Shown here: positions 1 to 19,064 of the stretch, piece by piece
How positions within the stretch are numbered: position 1 is the stretch's first letter
Layout: each line of letters begins with the position of its first letter
IMG/VR virus record: IMGVR_UViG_3300009060_000024
Source of the DNA: an uncultured virus (IMG/VR IMGVR_UViG_3300009060_000024)
Lineage: Duplodnaviria > Heunggongvirae > Uroviricota > Caudoviricetes
DNA length: 20,000 nt
Strand: one strand, 5' to 3'
The notes under the pieces: model-generated
What the model was told of the DNA's origin: nothing
What the model saw: the letters and a program-made list of their open reading frames with translations, nothing else
Databases searched by the model: none
Program-made: the position numbers and the translations under genes

Positions 1-4
1 GTAA

Positions 5-451
5 ATGGCTGCAGACAGTCATAAAATAAGGCCGCATCAGGTAGATGAAACTCCGACAAGATCAAAACTAACGAACCTGTTACTTCTGTTCAAAAAGCAT
101 GATGACCTAGAGATAGACGACATAATACAGGCTGAGTATGGAGAGGATCATTTCGGGGGTCATGTGTACGGAGACGGAAACGGAGAACACGACCCATCAT
201 CAATGGACAACAACGACGACTTACAACATAACAACGACCAAGCAAGGCCAGAATACTGGTACGACAAGATAGAGGACACAGTAGAGGAAAATGAGGAGAG
301 ATCAGTAAACAATTCTAATGTTATACGGCGTTTGCAGTTTAAACTAGATACAGTTGACTACAGAACGGTATGGGTTATGAGAATACTTACAGGCGTACTC
401 TTTGCGATCATAGCTGATATGATCATAAAAACGTTTCCCAGCGTTCTATAG
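5..451 (+). CDS. Hypothetical acidic protein with C-terminal transmembrane helix
   Basis: 148-aa ORF, D/E/N-rich, hydrophobic tail (VWVMRILTGVLFAIIADMII); the only credible + strand gene. Confidence 0.7.
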   Translation: MAADSHKIRPHQVDETPTRSKLTNLLLLFKKHDDLEIDDIIQAEYGEDHFGGHVYGDGNGEHDPSSMDNNDDLQHNNDQARPEYWYDKIEDTVEENEERSVNNSNVIRRLQFKLDTVDYRTVWVMRILTGVLFAIIADMIIKTFPSVL

Positions 452-590
452 TACCGCTACAGACGGCACAGACGGGTAGTATAGGCCCCGAGACGCCCGT
501 TTTCTTACGTCTCAAGCCTTCTACACGCCCCGTCCACACGACCCTATGCTTTCGTGCCATAACATAGGCATGTAAACCAATCTCTATTAC

Positions 591-872
591 TCACCGTATA
601 TCTCTTACTATATCATCAATAGAATTAGAAACATCAACCATATCAACATCTCCTAAGAACCCTGTTTGATTTTCTTTCCATGACATTGTAAATTTGCTCA
701 CATAACAATCGTCGTTTTCACATTCCCATTTAGAATCTGATAACTGAGTTCCAACACACGCACATTTCGGACATGCCTTATCTACACCTGGACTTTTCTC
801 TACATGTCTGCTAGATTCATTGTTTTGTATGCTGCTGCTTGTTCCGTCGTCTATTAGGTCTTTTATCGTCAT
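591..872 (-). CDS. Small Zn-finger protein
   Basis: CPKC...WECENDDC; starts MTIKDLIDD; resembles the adjacent ORF. Confidence 0.75.
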   Translation of the reverse strand: MTIKDLIDDGTSSSIQNNESSRHVEKSPGVDKACPKCACVGTQLSDSKWECENDDCYVSKFTMSWKENQTGFLGDVDMVDVSNSIDDIVRDIR

Positions 873-1081
873 GTTGTATCATTTGTTGGTGATAGAGTAA
901 AAGTGGTAGCATCGCAATCTTCATTGAGGCAAGAATAATAGTAATGTCTCTCCTCTGTGTTTCTCATTCTACACTGTGGACACATTACATTACCACTGTA
1001 ACATGTTTTTGGCTTATCGAGCCAAGACGATGCATCCTCTTTTTCTGAAGATGCGTCATCTACTAAGTCTTTAACTCCCAT
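869..1081 (-). CDS. Small Zn-finger protein (start moved to MGVKDLVDD)
   Basis: CPQC...YSCLNEDC; the longer ORF start lies inside tRNA-Gln; ATGA overlap with the next gene. Confidence 0.75.
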   Translation of the reverse strand: MGVKDLVDDASSEKEDASSWLDKPKTCYSGNVMCPQCRMRNTEERHYYYSCLNEDCDATTFTLSPTNDTT

Positions 1082-1090
1082 AATTACATA

Positions 1091-1163
1091 TAGTCCCGTA
1101 GAGATTCGAACTCTAGTCCTCGGCTCCAAAGGCCGATGTGATTGGCCGCTACACCACGGGACT
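1091..1163 (-). tRNA. tRNA-Gln(TTG)
   Basis: AGTCCCG/CGGGACT acceptor with archaeal-type A1-U72; anticodon arm TCGGC-CTTTGGA-GCCGA; T-loop TTCGAAT. Confidence 0.95.
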
Positions 1164-1167
1164 CAGA

Positions 1168-1256
1168 CGGCAGGACTGGGATTTGAACCCAGAGTGGAGT
1201 CATTACCTCCGGCTGGTTCTCAAGACCAGTGCATTGCCAGATTCTGCCATCCTGCC
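1168..1256 (-). tRNA. tRNA-Ser(TGA)
   Basis: GGCAGGA/TCCTGCC acceptor, G73, arm CTGGT-CTTGAGA-ACCAG, long variable arm. Confidence 0.95.
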
Positions 1257-1322
1257 ACATATTATTTTAACTCTTTGTTAGCATCTCTATATACACGACC
1301 ACACTAATAAATTTTGTGCGTG

Positions 1323-1595
1323 TTATGCGTCATTGTGTTGGTCTACCATTGGTATGCTCCTTTCTTCATCCTTTGGTATTGGGTTTCCGTCTTGGTCGAG
1401 CATTATTGTGTCATCTGGGACGTTAGTGCGTTTATACACTGTACGTCTCCCGCATTCAAAGCACTTCATGACAGGAACGTCATCGTACTTTTTGTTTATC
1501 CATATTACCCGCATACAATCATTATGCATGCAGTAGTATGGGATCTCTTCTTGTTGCGTCTTTACAGATCTGCTGTATGTATCGTTATGTCTCAT
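1323..1595 (-). CDS. Small Cys-rich putative Zn-binding protein
   Basis: CMHNDC...CFECG; likely start MRHND overlapping the upstream stop (ATGA). Confidence 0.65.
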   Translation of the reverse strand: MRHNDTYSRSVKTQQEEIPYYCMHNDCMRVIWINKKYDDVPVMKCFECGRRTVYKRTNVPDDTIMLDQDGNPIPKDEERSIPMVDQHNDA

Positions 1596-1729
1596 TCGTA
1601 CCCCCAATTATCATCTTCTGGCTCTTCCTCCGACCATCCACATTGCACACATATTTGTTTGTCCAATAATGCACTTCGGTTAAAATGGCCGCAATTAGGA
1701 CACGTCCAGCGGTTGTATGTTTCAACCAT
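1592..1729 (-). CDS. 45-aa Zn-ribbon microprotein (not in ORF track)
   Basis: MVETYNRWTCPNCGHFNRSALLDKQICVQCGWSEEEPEDDNWGYE, preceded by GGAGGTGA Shine-Dalgarno. Confidence 0.8.
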   Translation of the reverse strand: MVETYNRWTCPNCGHFNRSALLDKQICVQCGWSEEEPEDDNWGYE

Positions 1730-1743
1730 TTAATCACCTCCAA

Positions 1744-1816
1744 AGCTACCAGAGGGATTTGAACCCCCGACAACATCCTTACAAGGGACGCGCTCTACCA
1801 ACTGAGCCATGGTAGC
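1744..1816 (-). tRNA. tRNA-Thr(TGT)
   Basis: GCTACCA/TGGTAGC acceptor; loop CTTGTAA; T-loop TTCAAAT. Confidence 0.95.
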
Positions 1817-1821
1817 ACTCA

Positions 1822-1894
1822 CGGACATGACGAGACTCGAACTCGCGATCTAGAGGTTAGGAACCTCTCGCCTTGTCCACTAGGCCACATGTCC
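1822..1894 (-). tRNA. tRNA-Arg(CCT)
   Basis: GGACATG/CATGTCC acceptor; arm AGAGG-TTCCTAA-CCTCT. Confidence 0.95.
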
Positions 1895-2030
1895 AAATGG
1901 CTGCTTAGGGCAGCCAATCCGACTACGGGTGCGTATTGTGACGATCATATCTCAACCCTCACTGACCAGGCAAGGGTGCATCTGTTCCTTGCTCTCCCCT
2001 CTATTTAATATTGCGCCGAGGAGGCGCAAG
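1895..2030 (-). ncRNA. Candidate structured RNA filling the tRNA-Asn/tRNA-Arg spacer
   Basis: No ORF; several hairpins, a possible 5' pseudoknot, and a 3' CCUAA hairpin that recurs at 19953-19977. Confidence 0.45.
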
Positions 2031-2104
2031 CGCCTGCCCGAGGAATCGAACCTCGAACCTTCTGGGTAACAGCCAGATGCTCTACCAGGTTGAGCTAGGC
2101 AGGC
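2031..2104 (-). tRNA. tRNA-Asn(GTT)
   Basis: GCCTGCC/GGCAGGC acceptor, G73; arm TCTGG-CTGTTAC-CCAGA. Confidence 0.95.
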
Positions 2105-2346
2105 TTATAGGGGATTTTATGCCTCCCCCACAGAGCATCGGCACTCCAACACGCCACCATTACACAATTTGTGAATCCTGATGTTAAGTTCAGGCTTCAC
2201 CATCCCACGTGTCAATTGTCCCGACGAATCAACCTATCGAATGAGGTCTACGTTGTTGTGTACTCTATCTTCCGTGATATGATACGAGTTATGGTAGCAG
2301 GTAAGCTCTCGCTCGCGTGTCAATGTGGCATGTTTTACATGCCGAG

Positions 2347-2419
2347 TGGACCACCTCGGATTTGAACCGAGATCTGCACGTCCCAAACGTGCAATGATAC
2401 CAAGGTACACCAGTGGTCC
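2347..2419 (-). tRNA. tRNA-Pro(TGG)
   Basis: GGACCAC/GTGGTCC acceptor; arm GCACG-TTTGGGA-CGTGC. Confidence 0.95.
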
Positions 2420-2422
2420 AAA

Positions 2423-2535
2423 TGGGAGTGGGAGGGATCGAACCCCCGTCACAGATGTCATGATTGAGTTAGCGACATATGGCAATTTTGTTTGATGCTC
2501 ACCATTACTGTGACATTCCATTAAATTACACTCCC
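2423..2535 (-). ncRNA. tRNA-like RNA with the anticodon arm replaced by a branched domain
   Basis: Perfect acceptor GGGAGTG/CACTCCC+A; T-arm GGGGG-TTCGATC-CCTCC; 7-bp GTCACAG/CTGTGAC helix enclosing two hairpins. Confidence 0.7.
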
Positions 2536-2687
2536 TCGTTTATCGCTTCTATTAACGTTTTTTCAAACGACGATTTAGTTACTCCGGGGCATTGTGGACA
2601 GATGATTACATCTTGATCACGAGGATATACGACCCTGTAGAAGTCGTCGCTTATGTAACCTCCACAGTTCTCGCACTCGTGTGACAC
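2526..2687 (-). CDS. 53-aa CPxCG-related haloarchaeal-type Zn-finger protein (not in ORF track)
   Basis: GTG start; MSHECENCGGYISDDFYRVVYPRDQDVIICPQCPG...EGV; last codons overlap the tRNA-like RNA. Confidence 0.7.
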   Translation of the reverse strand: MSHECENCGGYISDDFYRVVYPRDQDVIICPQCPGVTKSSFEKTLIEAINEGV

Positions 2688-2688
2688 A

Positions 2689-3546
2689 CTATGACTTTAG
2701 GGAACGTGGTTTTATAATTCTTTCGGGTAGTGTTATACGATTCTCATCGTTCGGGAATCGTGGAGGTATCATCCAACTTTGTTTTATGCCACATTCCCAG
2801 TTAGATGTTATCTTCATTGGGTAATGGTTATCTAAATATATGTTAACAGTATCTGTGTTAACGATGGTCGAGTCTAGATAACCCATAGACATTATACAGT
2901 CTGTTATATGCTCCTCAGACTCATCATGCGGAGAGCCTTCATAATGGTCAACGTTACTCCAGTCTATATCATAGTCATCAAAATCTTCCCAATGAATACG
3001 CTCTGCCATTTCAGAGTCATCCGAGTCTGTCCACATATAGAACAACCCATCTCTTGCACTTAGATACATGTATCCATTCTTCTTATCCCCCATCCCCTTA
3101 TCATAGTCGTTAATAAAATCGCTTATGAAGGAGAAATCGTTGGTAATTTTAACAGATGTGTCTAGATCAGGAACTTGATCTGGGACACCTGATACTTGGT
3201 CAGGATCTGTCATTGGGAACTTATATTCCCTGTTGTCTGCATCAAGCTGAAGTTTATATAATTTCCCGGCAGATTGTACTATCTCGAACGTAACAGTATC
3301 ATCGTTCACACTCGAAACGTAATCTATGATTCTGCTAACGTCTATGCCAATACGTGGAAACTCTCCAACTTCCCACACCTCCATCGACTCGGATGGTATA
3401 AACGCTGCTTGAAGTGCAGTGTTTGACATTTCATTAACTCTTATAACCATCCCTTTTTCACTCATGTTTATGAGTAACTCATCTCTGTACTCATTGAGTG
3501 AATTGAATACATCATACAGCCTGTCCGCTTGTATCTCCATTTTCAT
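2689..3546 (-). CDS. pcn: DNA sliding clamp (PCNA-like)
   Basis: PCNA-type N-terminus (MEIQADRLYDVFNSLNEYRDELLINMSEKGMVIR), IGIDV, HYPMKIT, and WMIPPR matching the xxAPR C-terminal motif. Confidence 0.85.
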   Translation of the reverse strand: MKMEIQADRLYDVFNSLNEYRDELLINMSEKGMVIRVNEMSNTALQAAFIPSESMEVWEVGEFPRIGIDVSRIIDYVSSVNDDTVTFEIVQSAGKLYKLQLDADNREYKFPMTDPDQVSGVPDQVPDLDTSVKITNDFSFISDFINDYDKGMGDKKNGYMYLSARDGLFYMWTDSDDSEMAERIHWEDFDDYDIDWSNVDHYEGSPHDESEEHITDCIMSMGYLDSTIVNTDTVNIYLDNHYPMKITSNWECGIKQSWMIPPRFPNDENRITLPERIIKPRSLKS

Positions 3547-3821
3547 TTATGATCTAGCCAATTGTCTGCTGTTACGTTTGTCTTTCCGTTACTACCGTTT
3601 GAACTCTTCTCAAGGTCTATGTCAGTCTCTTCTATAACATAGTCTGCCATGAGTGTTTCCAACACCTTTATTCTCCTCTCTATATTTTCCATTCTCTTAT
3701 CATACTCTACTACAAGTTTATACATCCTCTTAAGCCTTTCGTCATCTGTCTGTGCTTCGTCAACGTCATCTGGAGTAGTTTCGTCTTTATCTCCAGTGTC
3801 AACTATATCATCTAGTCCCAT
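3543..3821 (-). CDS. Hypothetical acidic coiled-coil protein
   Basis: Heptad-like YDKRMENIERRIKVLETLM; overlaps both neighbours. Confidence 0.7.
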   Translation of the reverse strand: MGLDDIVDTGDKDETTPDDVDEAQTDDERLKRMYKLVVEYDKRMENIERRIKVLETLMADYVIEETDIDLEKSSNGSNGKTNVTADNWLDHK

Positions 3822-4249
3822 TTATTACTCGTGGGCTGTTTATTGTTGTTCCATTCTCTGCCACTGTTAACAAGCGACGAAACTGCGTCGTCAACCGATG
3901 TTGTAATGGCATCAGAATGATACTCTAAGAACACGGGTATGTCATCCTTGCTCGATTCATCTGTAAGAAGCACTGATGGTATCCCAAGGGAATAAGCTAC
4001 ATGATTCTCGTAGTACGTTCCACATGTATTGAATGGTTCTATAACCCGCATCAGTATTCCGTCACTGTCCTTAACAGCGTTTTTACATACTTCTGGGATT
4101 GATTTTCGGTCTTCGTGTTTGCACAGATTTATTGGGTTGATCCAATCAATACTTGGGTACCTGTCTATTATGTCCTCTCTCCATTCGTTAGCGTATTCTA
4201 TGCTTTCAACCGCGTCAACTGGGCCTGCAAGGTAGTACATTTTATCCAT
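3812..4249 (-). CDS. Nucleoside 2-deoxyribosyltransferase-like / nucleotide N-hydrolase family protein
   Basis: YLAGP, WR...INP, SDGIL, GTYYE, AYSLGIP motifs. Confidence 0.85.
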   Translation of the reverse strand: MDKMYYLAGPVDAVESIEYANEWREDIIDRYPSIDWINPINLCKHEDRKSIPEVCKNAVKDSDGILMRVIEPFNTCGTYYENHVAYSLGIPSVLLTDESSKDDIPVFLEYHSDAITTSVDDAVSSLVNSGREWNNNKQPTSNKWD

Positions 4250-4251
4250 TG

Positions 4252-4422
4252 TTATTTGTTGTTCAGCTTAGTGTATCTGTCGCTTGTGATGTATTGACCT
4301 GGCTCCTCATCATGCACGACATAATACAGCTCGCATTTGATGCATTTCCACCTTCGTTTGTACCTCTTTGTATTAAGCTCCTTACAGAAGGAACCACACA
4401 CATCACATCTCTTTGACGGCAT
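4252..4422 (-). CDS. 56-aa Zn-ribbon microprotein (not in ORF track)
   Basis: MPSKRCDVCGSFCKELNTKRYKRRWKCIKCELYY...; fills the gap between genes. Confidence 0.65.
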   Translation of the reverse strand: MPSKRCDVCGSFCKELNTKRYKRRWKCIKCELYYVVHDEEPGQYITSDRYTKLNNK

Positions 4423-4429
4423 TGGAGTT

Positions 4430-4624
4430 CTATTTATCCCTTATTATGTTTGCCACCAAGCCATTTGCACAATCTTTACAGAGATCATACGAAATATCTG
4501 TCTTACTGTTTGGATATGTATGCATTGTAGATGTGAATTTGGCCTTTGACCACACCGCAGGGTAGTTGACATTCTCTTGTTGTTTGCCACATTTATCGCA
4601 CCTGTGCAGTCTTGTTGTTGTCAT
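4430..4624 (-). CDS. Small Zn-finger protein
   Basis: CDKCG...DLCKDC; GAGGTGA Shine-Dalgarno. Confidence 0.75.
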   Translation of the reverse strand: MTTTRLHRCDKCGKQQENVNYPAVWSKAKFTSTMHTYPNSKTDISYDLCKDCANGLVANIIRDK

Positions 4625-4635
4625 ACTTCACCTCA

Positions 4636-4674
4636 AGCACACTGGAGGAATCGAACCTCCACAAACCATTGTGC
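4636..4674 (-). ncRNA. tRNA minihelix-like element (acceptor + T-arm only)
   Basis: GCACAAT-GGTTTGT-GGAGG-TTCGATT-CCTCC-AGTGTGC-T. Confidence 0.6.
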
Positions 4675-4693
4675 GTGGAACAGATTGGTTAAC

Positions 4694-5488
4694 TTAGTCT
4701 ATTAACGCCTTAACACCTCCAAGTTTGCCGTTCTTTACCGGACAGTAATCGGAATGCGAACAGTATTGGCACTCCTTCTCATAAGCCGGCACCTGCTTCT
4801 TATCAAAGTACTGCATCTTCTCTTTCCAGAACCTTGTGTCCATCCCATCAAGCTGCTCGTTAGTATATCTGTTGCCAGTCCTGTATCCAAAGTCCTTAAG
4901 GGCGTTATGGATACTGTGTGCCTTGCTCTTAACCACCTCCCAATTATCTTCACTCATCGTGCCAGGCATCACGGTTATATCATTAACTAAGTCTCTGGAC
5001 TTACTGTTAATCATTATAAGACCGTATGTGTCAGCATCATACATATGAGCGTATGTATTTGCCTGACTCATGTATTTGTACAACCTTCCGTGACCACTCG
5101 ATGGAGGGATGGACGAATACTTTATGTCGAATATTGTTGTCTCCCCGTCCTTTGTGCAGATTATGTCACACTTACCTGTGATCGACACTTCATCGTCTAT
5201 CTGGCACTGTGACGGCACTTCATATGAGGTGTCTACTGGGTGATAGCCAGCCCTGTTAAGGGCGTCTGTCATCAACCCAGTCTCTTGGAGGTAGTAATGG
5301 ACAGCGCTTCCCTGAAACAGCCAGCAATTAAGAACTGTCTCATCATCCGTCATCCAGTCGAGGAACACCTTTAGAGGACATCCTGTAATCTGTGACGGAT
5401 GGTATTCTCCTAGAACATGTTTGCCATACGAGACGTTGTTCTCGTATAGAACATCTCCAAGAGACTCCTCAATAAGAGTGTCGTTCAT
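4694..5488 (-). CDS. Cas4-like PD-(D/E)XK exonuclease with Fe-S cysteines
   Basis: HPSQITGC, GSAVH, GKCD...DIK, QxxxY, CQYCSHSDYC. Confidence 0.88.
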   Translation of the reverse strand: MNDTLIEESLGDVLYENNVSYGKHVLGEYHPSQITGCPLKVFLDWMTDDETVLNCWLFQGSAVHYYLQETGLMTDALNRAGYHPVDTSYEVPSQCQIDDEVSITGKCDIICTKDGETTIFDIKYSSIPPSSGHGRLYKYMSQANTYAHMYDADTYGLIMINSKSRDLVNDITVMPGTMSEDNWEVVKSKAHSIHNALKDFGYRTGNRYTNEQLDGMDTRFWKEKMQYFDKKQVPAYEKECQYCSHSDYCPVKNGKLGGVKALID

Positions 5489-12426: not shown

Positions 12427-12591
12427 TTATCTGCAGTCGGCCAGATCAACAACGTCCTCGTCAGGAGAGTACGCAATCCATTCGCATGGGTTGTACTCGT
12501 TGTATGAGTACACGAGTCCGTTACCCCATTCCTGAGTGGCGTACTCTTCATCATCTGACGTTGTTGGGCCGTTCCATTCTTTTACCGACAT
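12427..12591 (-). CDS. Small acidic haloarchaeal-type hypothetical protein (start MSVKEW)
   Basis: GLVYSYNEYNPCEWI...VVDLADCR; promoter upstream. Confidence 0.6.
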   Translation of the reverse strand: MSVKEWNGPTTSDDEEYATQEWGNGLVYSYNEYNPCEWIAYSPDEDVVDLADCR

Positions 12592-17778: not shown

Positions 17779-18068
17779 TTACTCGTCGTCGGGGCCGAGG
17801 GTGTTGAAGAGATCGCGGAGCGGCTCGTAGTTGTTCCGCTTCTCTGCCTCCACAACCGCGTGGAGGAACTTACCGACCGGGACGTTGATGTTCTGACCGA
17901 GCATGTTACGAAGTTCCTGCGCCGAATCGTAGAACTCCTGCTCGTGGCGGTGTTCCGTACCATCAGGGATCTCGTCTGCCGCATTACGCGGATTCCAGAA
18001 CTTGATGTGGGTACTCTTACCGCCGCTAGACGACTCCTCGGACTCTGGGGTGAGGTCTCCAATTCCCA
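17779..18068 (-). CDS. Hypothetical acidic protein (start MGIGDLTPES), visibly more GC-rich codons
   Basis: ATG follows a structured leader; the longer ORF start lies in the structured RNA. Confidence 0.7.
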
Positions 18069-18084
18069 TGGTTAATACACTCCA

Positions 18085-18242
18085 TTTGTAAGGCGATGAG
18101 TACTCGCCCCCCGTGTTTCCCCACTGGAACATCCCTCGTACCAGTCAGGCTCGCAGCCGATCAGGGTCCGGCTGAGTTCCAACACTGGGATCGAACCAGA
18201 TTTCGTCCTATTGGAAACCGCATGTCTACGTCCCCTCACAAA
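18085..18242 (-). ncRNA. Candidate promoter-driven structured RNA or leader containing a tRNA minihelix-like module
   Basis: Terminal helix TTTGTGAGG/CCTTACAAA; internal TTCCAAT/GTTGGAA stem with a TTCGATC T-loop arm; CAGCCGG/TCGGCTG and ACTGG/CCAGT hairpins. Confidence 0.55.
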
Positions 18243-18349: not shown

Positions 18350-18580
18350 CTACCTAACCTCTACCCCTTCGAGATGCTTGATTCGGTCCTTGAACACCCT
18401 CATTGGATTGCCCTTATATTTTGCCTTGTTCTTTGTTGACTCTACATATTTACGTACTGTGCTTTCAGATACTCCTACATTAGATGCAATGCTTCTTTTA
18501 CTTAGACCAACAGCGTGGAGTGCTACTATTTCAGCTACCTTTTGATCTGATATACTCTTAAAGTTACCATTATAAGTCAT
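18350..18580 (-). CDS. Helix-turn-helix DNA-binding protein (start MTYNGN)
   Basis: LHAVGLSKRSIASNVGVSESTVRKYV. Confidence 0.8.
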   Translation of the reverse strand: MTYNGNFKSISDQKVAEIVALHAVGLSKRSIASNVGVSESTVRKYVESTKNKAKYKGNPMRVFKDRIKHLEGVEVR

Positions 18581-19064
18581 GGTTGCCCTCCAACCATGAC
18601 CAATCAATTGGCGACGGTGACTCATCCCCCTCGTCAGCATATTGGTCAACATGCCTCTCAGCACGCTCTTTGGCATTCCCAACTCTCATATCAATATCAT
18701 CAAACATGGACATGCACTCATTGTACATCTCAATATTCTTTCCATACTGCTTACCTCTGAAGAACGCATACCCTTCATCATCTGGTATTTCATCATTTCT
18801 TATTGCAGATTTGCACATGTCCTCAGCTCTGTCATCTGGAGGGTAGCACATCATTCCATGAAAAGCTGTTGAGTAGCATAGCCAATCAATAAACTCAGAT
18901 GGGGACATAGACGCATCTTTAAGAACGTTGCATCTTATACCATCTAAACTGTTCCATTGACGTGCTATGTCTAGAGATCTCTGTATCTCTTCATCCCCCT
19001 CGATTTCTTCGTTTGAATCGAGACAATCTAATTTTATTTCTATCGTGAGTATATTATGCGTCAT
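18570..19064 (-). CDS. Hypothetical acidic protein
   Basis: 164-aa ORF with an upstream GGTGA element. Confidence 0.7.
   Translation of the reverse strand: MTHNILTIEIKLDCLDSNEEIEGDEEIQRSLDIARQWNSLDGIRCNVLKDASMSPSEFIDWLCYSTAFHGMMCYPPDDRAEDMCKSAIRNDEIPDDEGYAFFRGKQYGKNIEMYNECMSMFDDIDMRVGNAKERAERHVDQYADEGDESPSPIDWSWLEGNHDL

Follow-up and report, generated by a model that had tools for sequence, protein, structure and literature searches.

What is a tRNA-like acceptor stem and T arm doing between a promoter and the start codon of a small viral gene? The locus lies in a 20,000-nt stretch of DNA from an uncultured virus, here called the window, in which all long ORFs and all tRNA genes are on the minus strand. 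A family scan that took in 20 minus-strand ORFs, from 43 ORFs of at least 90 aa, found a UvrD-type helicase, a primase-polymerase, a Dam methylase, a Cas4-like nuclease, and several small zinc-ribbon and HTH proteins. The window reads as the replication module of an uncultured, tRNA-rich virus. Its tRNA genes, 13 according to Rfam and 12 according to ARAGORN, are located between the ORFs on the same strand and lack an encoded CCA. The proteome is acidic (median pI 4.9, with a pI below 5 in 10 of 20 proteins), and judging from composition and promoter type, the host is probably a salt-adapted archaeon. As listed, the HTH ORF (18682-18350) and a 164-aa ORF (19064-18570), which together cover 18350-19064 on the minus strand, overlap by 113 nt; the HTH protein probably starts at a later codon.

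The only homologous DNA that we found is a stretch of a 43-kb metagenome contig, L001, the one confirmed case among 77 stretches that matched the search pattern. L001 carries tRNAs and genes in the same order as the window, with tRNA-Gly, Ala, Arg-tct, Lys, Val, and Leu around the element. It also has (1-4308) an extra tRNA-Ser(gct) between Val and Leu, and the genes upstream of the promoter are different ones. Cultured phage and virus records contain no close record: the 1-kb region had no DNA match and the 96-aa product of the downstream gene no tblastn match there, the helicase was at most 26.6% identical to its matches, which belong to bacterial phages, and the core of the leader gave only three matches of 24-32 nt, each at the chance level of E = 4. 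Among viral contigs, no relative was found using the 96-aa protein, an alignment of that protein, the helicase, or an alignment of a 143-aa neighbour, and none matched exact DNA patterns from the leader core. Genome contigs, one genome each for 185,579 prokaryote species, held no relative of the 96-aa protein. A search of sequencing runs for the stretch listed one DNA run and no RNA run. The DNA run carries the window's own sequence and one L001-like variant, and adds nothing independent.

Read directly from the sequence, the motifs of the region all lie on the minus strand, and every sequence element listed by the original prediction, which had pictured a promoter-driven closed RNA domain of ~160 nt, is present at its coordinates. 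The archaeal-type promoter AAGGTTTATAG (18273-18263) contains a TATA box, TTTATA, at 18269-18264. L001 keeps both the promoter core AAGGTTTATA and a TGTG located 30 nt downstream from the TATA box, which supports the view that the region sits below a conserved promoter of archaeal type. From the spacing alone, transcription is predicted to start near G18239. An untranslated leader of ~170 nt (18242-18070) lies between the promoter and the ATG at 18069, and GGAG at 18083-18080 is 11 nt before this codon. The gene that follows (17779-18069) encodes a 96-aa acidic protein with at least 31 metagenomic homologues. An invariant block resembling SGGKSTHIKFWNPRNA is shared by the family, which corresponds to no Pfam or PHROG family. 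The AlphaFold model of the protein is poor (pLDDT 56.8); its input alignment consisted of 28 of the 31 homologues, with P0001, P0005, and P0017 left out. From the promoter to the gene, no terminator-like site was detected, and for this reason we regard the region as a leader rather than a separate ncRNA gene; the original prediction had allowed for either, and only the leader holds. The sequence AAGGTTTATA occurs again at ~12640 on the minus strand, upstream of a 154-aa ORF starting at 12554, and once in L001 at ~3888 on the opposite strand, which suggests a shared viral promoter consensus.

A 117-aa ORF, 18132-17779, extends the downstream gene into the region. In the alignment of homologues, however, the family start MG[LI]GDLTP corresponds to Met 18069, from which the starts of 29 of the 31 proteins are at most one residue away. 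The other two, P0001 and P0017, have N-terminal extensions that are unrelated. The N-terminal extension that the original prediction had named among its refuting conditions is thus not supported, and its non-coding leader stands. A different frame of 55 codons (18239-18072) has a GTG start at the predicted transcript start and a stop 2 nt before the ATG. It is open in both the window and L001 and its stop adjoins the start of the 96-aa gene, yet a small protein made from it is very improbable. Against L001, its three codon positions carry 12, 12, and 10 differences; 18 of the changed codons are non-synonymous and 1 is synonymous, with no third-position bias. The 96-aa gene gives 3/1/25 instead, with 22 synonymous and 3 non-synonymous codons. 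An indel relative to L001 shifts the frame in its C-terminal part, and the predicted pI of 9.4 contrasts with the proteome median of 4.9. No proteins similar to this 55-aa minus-strand ORF or to a 50-aa plus-strand ORF were found among 5.8 billion. Another bait frame over the RNA had one match, an unrelated 686-aa tandem-repeat protein. Because the differences are even over codon positions, without codon periodicity, the leader stretch is non-coding.

The tRNA-like part of this leader, hereafter the mimic, is a 41-nt top half of a tRNA at 18176-18216, ~23 nt into the predicted transcript. The acceptor 5' strand TTCCAAT (18216-18210) is followed by the linker AGGACGAAA (18209-18201), which contains GG, and by the T stem-loop TCTGG-TTCGATC-CCAGT (18200-18184) with its loop TTCGATC. 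Directly after the T arm come the acceptor 3' strand GTTGGAA (18183-18177), which pairs with the 5' strand at 7 of 7 positions, and a discriminator C at 18176. The D arm and the anticodon arm are absent, leaving just 9 nt to separate the T arm from the acceptor 5' strand. U-A forms the first acceptor pair, and the T stem has 4 of 5 pairs in the window (U-U at the first) and 5 of 5 in L001 (A-U at the first). With this one T-stem mismatch in the window, the mimic has the 7-bp acceptor stem on a 5-bp T stem with a GTTCRANNC loop that marks a tRNA. It is not a full tRNA: ARAGORN does not call it, and the Rfam tRNA model (RF00005) does not match it even at E up to 10. Its acceptor stem recurs in none of the window's tRNAs.

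Such an arrangement is not expected by chance. The T-loop pattern GGTTCRANNCC is found 12 times in the window compared with 0.22 expected; ten are in tRNA genes, and the only ones outside are in the mimic and in an element at 4636-4674. A looser scan for an acceptor strand, linker, T arm, and second acceptor strand returned 7 matches in the window against 1.15 per shuffle. Three are inside real tRNAs and two weak ones are in coding sequence; 7 of 7 acceptor pairs occur in the mimic only. Folded alone, the minihelix has a z-score of -2.15 in the window (6/200 shuffles as good) and -1.35 in L001 (20/200). The energy model nevertheless prefers to the T arm a rival hairpin in which GGACGAA of the linker pairs with UUCGAUCC, at -13.0 versus -7.2 kcal/mol in the window and -12.7 versus -12.3 in L001. 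The differences between the two sequences in this segment slightly favour the T arm, as one of them repairs the T stem and the T-loop change, at a variable loop position, breaks a rival pair. An exact 14-nt repeat of GTGTTGGAACTCAG, which comprises the acceptor 3' strand and what follows it, is present at 744-757 on the minus strand, inside a zinc-ribbon ORF, and is probably due to chance. Other known RNA types were considered by eye and dropped. Against a permuted or split tRNA, the downstream UUCCAGU shows no co-variation in L001 with the acceptor 3' strand; the motifs of a C/D-box or H/ACA sRNA, and those of a K-loop in the third hairpin of the leader, do not fit; and ARAGORN finds no tmRNA.

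Comparison with L001 shows which parts of the leader are kept. At the four-fold degenerate sites of the 96-aa gene, 15 of 42 are changed. The core of the leader, 18216-18107, is identical at 91 of 110 columns (binomial P 4e-5 versus the four-fold sites), and its sequence is under selection. Identity amounts to 34/41 in the mimic, 16/17 in hairpin 2, and 28/31 in hairpin 3, and an invariant block of 30 nt extends from 18145 to 18116. The GG-containing linker is unchanged at 9/9 columns and the acceptor and T arm are conserved, in support of the original view of this minihelix as a tRNA mimic. The first 29 nt of the leader are identical at 10/29 columns and the last 45 columns before the ATG at 18/45. 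The variable 5' leader, 18217-18242, which includes TTTGTGAGG at 18242-18234, is poorly kept in L001.

Downstream of the mimic the core contains two further hairpins. Hairpin 2, CAGCCGG-ACCCUGA-UCGGCUG, is located at 18154-18174. Its inner 5 bp (18172-18168 with 18160-18156) are kept in L001, where a single change converts G-U to A-U; the outer two pairs are not kept. Hairpin 3 at 18119-18149 consists of CCU-G-ACUGG, the 13-nt loop UACGAGGGAUGUU, and CCAGU-G-GGG, and holds the 30-nt invariant block. Its stem includes the ACTGG at 18145-18141 and the CCAGT at 18127-18123, and two changes in the outer stem, C-G to U-G and U-G to C-G, both keep the pair. The hairpin 2 loop may also be tied to the sequence CGGGG at 18109-18113 by a pseudoknot. 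This candidate helix with CCCUG (18166-18162) has 5/5 pairs in both sequences with one compatible change in L001, U-G to U-A, and the minimum-energy folds of the core of both the window and L001 use it. CUGG and CCAGUG each occur twice in the region, making alternative pairings possible.

The core differs from L001 at 19 positions. Nine are in paired columns and none of these breaks a pair; the other ten affect a T-loop position, the discriminator, spacers, or a bulge. In the acceptor stem, pairs 1 and 2 are changed on both sides, from U-A to G-C and from U-A to G-U, and all four base changes keep pairing. A hand-written tRNA-like structure pairs at 49/50 cells, or 59/60 with the CCCUG/CRGGG helix, although it was partly chosen on the same two-sequence alignment that was used to score it. 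In a shuffle control for covariation, the observed score was reached in 130/500 shuffles, or 115/500 with the pseudoknot helix, and is not significant. Covariation in these two sequences is therefore suggestive only.

These patterns bear on whether the mimic is merely the remnant of a tRNA gene that has lost its D and anticodon arms by deletion and has no function. The 12-13 tRNA genes scattered between the ORFs offer a source for such remnants, a canonical T loop is combined with an imperfect T stem and a U as first base, and the element at 4636-4674 may itself be a degenerate tRNA. On the other hand, the mimic is identical at 34/41 columns where 15/42 neutral sites have changed, the four acceptor changes keep their pairs, and the one in the T stem turns a mismatch into a pair. 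Conservation also covers the adjacent 70 nt, and the acceptor stem is unlike that of every tRNA in the window. We consider a functionless remnant unlikely.

The larger architecture that had been proposed is less well supported. The original prediction enclosed the region in a helix between its ends, the TTTGTGAGG/CCTTACAAA region. This closing helix has 11 bp in the window, a length reached by 38/2000 shuffles. The longest helix between the 5' and 3' ends of L001, the sole relative, has 6 bp, and 1568/2000 shuffles do as well, so the ~160-nt closed domain is not kept there. A 3' hairpin thought to compete with the closing helix, GGCGA-GUACUCA-UCGCC at 18108-18092, is indeed present in the window. 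It belongs to the variable 3' part of the leader, 18085-18108, and overlaps CCTTACAAA (18093-18085). L001 has an unrelated 8-bp hairpin at this place, and neither helix of the supposed competition is kept. As far as can be told, the closed domain and the competition between helices are features of the window sequence alone. In this single homologue, pairing is thus retained in the minihelix, the GCCGR-ACCCUGA-UCGGC hairpin, and the ACUGG/CCAGU hairpin, but not in the closing helix or in the sequence of the 3' hairpin. Folding energies of the whole region are no better than those of shuffles: z-scores were -1.54 for 158 nt of the window (12/200 shuffles as good), -1.38 for 180 nt of the window (17/200), and +0.17 for 179 nt of L001 (109/200). 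The 111-nt core gave -0.02 in the window (91/200) and +0.22 in L001 (103/200). A search of Rfam 15 yielded no family match, the best being freshwater-1 at 16 bits against a gathering score of 72, with none for L001 at E up to 1, in line with the suggestion that the RNA is an undescribed one.

What, then, does the mimic do? The reading we prefer, by analogy and at a probability of roughly 0.45, is that it acts as a t-element-like signal read by RNase P and tRNase Z, with a structured, conserved leader after it. The mRNA would be made from its own TATA promoter. Within it, the 7-bp acceptor stem, the T arm with its canonical GGUUCGAUCC loop, and the discriminator base would present the two enzymes with a substrate. 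Host RNase P would cut on the mimic's 5' side, separating 18217 from 18216, and tRNase Z would cut after the discriminator, between 18176 and 18175, the same cuts as for the real tRNAs between genes of the virus. With the variable 5' end removed, the mRNA would begin with two conserved hairpins, possibly tied by the pseudoknot, and these could then set the stability or translation of the message, whether by protecting or by regulating it. The start site, the two cuts, and what the hairpins do are all inferred. Because real tRNAs without an encoded CCA sit between ORFs on the same strand, these transcripts must already be cut by host enzymes. The mimic lies between a conserved promoter and a gene, with no terminator-like site between them, in a predicted transcript. 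It has the partial tRNA-like fold with acceptor stem and T arm that is typical of t-elements, a fold to which the energy model prefers the rival hairpin in the window.

Precedents for such cutting are described in archaea and organelles. In Haloferax, a t-element upstream of 5S rRNA is described as being cut by tRNase Z, and t-elements artificially placed beside a crRNA as being cut in vivo by RNase P and tRNase Z (PMC4326828). RNase Z enzymes of methanogens are reported to process pre-tRNAs lacking the D or anticodon arm, needing the acceptor stem and a mature 5' end (PMC7479834). In plant mitochondria, t-elements with a conserved T arm are said to mark mRNA ends (PMC1920247). The parts of our leader that are best conserved, namely the linker of 9 nt and the 70 nt that follow the mimic, speak against the mimic being a cutting mark and nothing more. 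A second point against it is that, in work by Hoelzle from 2012 in Biochimie, most of the tRNA-like elements predicted by computation in Haloferax were reportedly not cut in vitro. We describe the mimic as functionally most like the t-elements by analogy, with membership resting on cleavage.

The conservation beyond the mimic raises the possibility, which we regard as real though not likely, that the leader is never cut. The mimic, with its GG linker as a stand-in for the D loop and hence an elbow, would then form one structured regulatory RNA with hairpins 2 and 3 and the pseudoknot. Such an RNA would bind a protein or a tRNA-recognising factor and thereby control translation or stability of the message for the 96-aa protein. 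The 9/9 linker, the invariant hairpin loops, and the 30-nt invariant block exceed what a cutting mark needs; the CCCUG/CRGGG helix is possible and contains a compatible change; and the repeated CUGG and CCAGUG allow alternative pairings. Most haloarchaeal mRNAs are leaderless, and a leader of ~170 nt would be unusual, which we count in favour of this possibility. Weighing against it, no cis-regulatory family in Rfam matches, the folding energy is no better than that of shuffles, and the two supposedly competing helices are not conserved. Neither a ligand nor a partner can be named, and the fold of the 96-aa protein is poorly predicted (pLDDT 56.8). In its strongest form, the leader would represent a new class of viral regulatory RNA, combining an elbow mimic, two invariant hairpins, and a pseudoknot, through which the gene depends on or competes for the machinery that recognises tRNAs; this we find rather doubtful. 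Candidates for such machinery are RNase P, tRNase Z, the CCA-adding enzyme, or a tRNA-targeting defence.

Two further explanations give the mimic a role of its own. After its release from the transcript, the 41-nt minihelix could receive a CCA and serve as a decoy or competitor for tRNA-handling enzymes, for example, those of a host defence that attacks tRNAs. The top half of tRNA is described as being recognised by RNase P, tRNase Z, the CCA-adding enzyme, and several synthetases (PMC4033280), and in phage T4 the tRNA region is described as giving rise to two small RNAs whose role is unknown (PMC3014915). However, nothing points to accumulation of the minihelix, and its acceptor sequence differs between the window and L001, so that no single identity set is kept. 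A decoy also leaves the conserved downstream hairpins unexplained, and we consider it quite unlikely. Alternatively, the mimic could be an attP-type copy of the 3' end of a host tRNA used for integration, since truncated tRNA-like genes, interpreted as attP sites, are described in HF2 and its relatives (PMC8707807). This is highly improbable here. An exact match to the 21-base T-arm/acceptor pattern CTGGTTCGANCCCAGTGTTGG is absent from a set of 185,579 prokaryote genomes, one per species, the 20 scanned ORFs of the window include no integrase family, and the complementary 5' strand, which is not needed for integration, co-varies nonetheless.

Several known RNAs resemble the mimic in part. The mascRNA at the 3' end of MALAT1 is a tRNA mimic in a long transcript that is cut out by RNase P and RNase Z, as we propose for the leader; it differs in being eukaryotic, at the 3' end, and a near-complete cloverleaf. 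The tRNA-like domain of tmRNA has, like the mimic, an acceptor stem and a T arm without an anticodon arm, but its two acceptor strands are hundreds of nucleotides apart. The t-element of Haloferax volcanii, as described, is a tRNA-like fold within a longer transcript of a salt-loving archaeal system, and its recognition by RNase P and tRNase Z gives the neighbouring RNA its end (PMC4326828). The mimic, in contrast, is viral, sits in an mRNA leader, has only the acceptor and T arm, and is followed by conserved hairpins, and its cleavage is a proposal. In plant mitochondria, mRNA leaders and trailers likewise contain t-elements, described as partial tRNA-like structures in which the pseudouridine (T) arm is conserved and thought to direct the RNase P and Z cuts that make mRNA ends (PMC1920247). 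These elements are organellar, unrelated in sequence, and mostly fuller, cloverleaf-like structures of ~74 nt.

Among viral RNAs, RNA C and RNA D of phage T4 are described as small, without a known role, and derived from a tRNA region of the virus (PMC3014915). They belong to a bacterial phage and are separate stable species. HrrHF2_450 (attP), a tRNA-like gene of HF2, is also a truncated tRNA-like sequence in a halovirus, described as matching the last 57 nt of host tRNA genes and lying beside an integrase (PMC8707807). Unlike it, the mimic matches no genome searched, and no integrase is seen in the window. Published work on HGTV-1 concerns tRNA genes (PMC13532342). The portions of the literature that our search returned contain no description of tRNA top-half mimics in archaeal viruses, the nearest being the HF2 attP-type gene and counts of tRNA genes.

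If host tRNA enzymes do cut here, archaeal viruses would shape their messages with stripped-down copies of tRNAs in addition to real tRNA genes. The punctuation of transcripts by tRNAs, known from mitochondria and from the 5S rRNA precursor of Haloferax, would then extend to viruses, and the tRNA genes scattered between the ORFs of such viruses would be partly explained. In that case the strongly conserved downstream hairpins would count as a candidate for a new motif of leaders. The element, which is short and conserved, could be tested directly with the genetics of Haloferax, in which t-elements already serve as tools.

The second tRNA-like element, at 4636-4674 on the minus strand, has the T arm GGAGG-TTCGATT-CCTCC and 6 of 7 acceptor pairs. 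It is positioned 12 nt before the ATG at 4623 of a small zinc-ribbon ORF, just after the gene for the Cas4-like nuclease, and its folding z-score is -2.09. The original prediction had paired it with the mimic as a minihelix of the same kind. Its T-loop pattern does exceed chance; another reading makes it the 3' part of a degenerate long-arm tRNA (4637-4728). This reading is weak (tRNA-Sec model, 17 bits, E 0.49), and over 4636-4728 it overlaps the last codons of the Cas4-like nuclease gene. Elsewhere in the window, a 113-nt tRNA at 2423-2535 on the minus strand is detected by Rfam only, at 30.4 bits against a gathering score of 29, and is missed by ARAGORN. Its acceptor, D, and T arms are normal, with 63 nt in place of the model's 18-nt anticodon-arm stretch, and it may be an intron-containing or otherwise interrupted viral tRNA.
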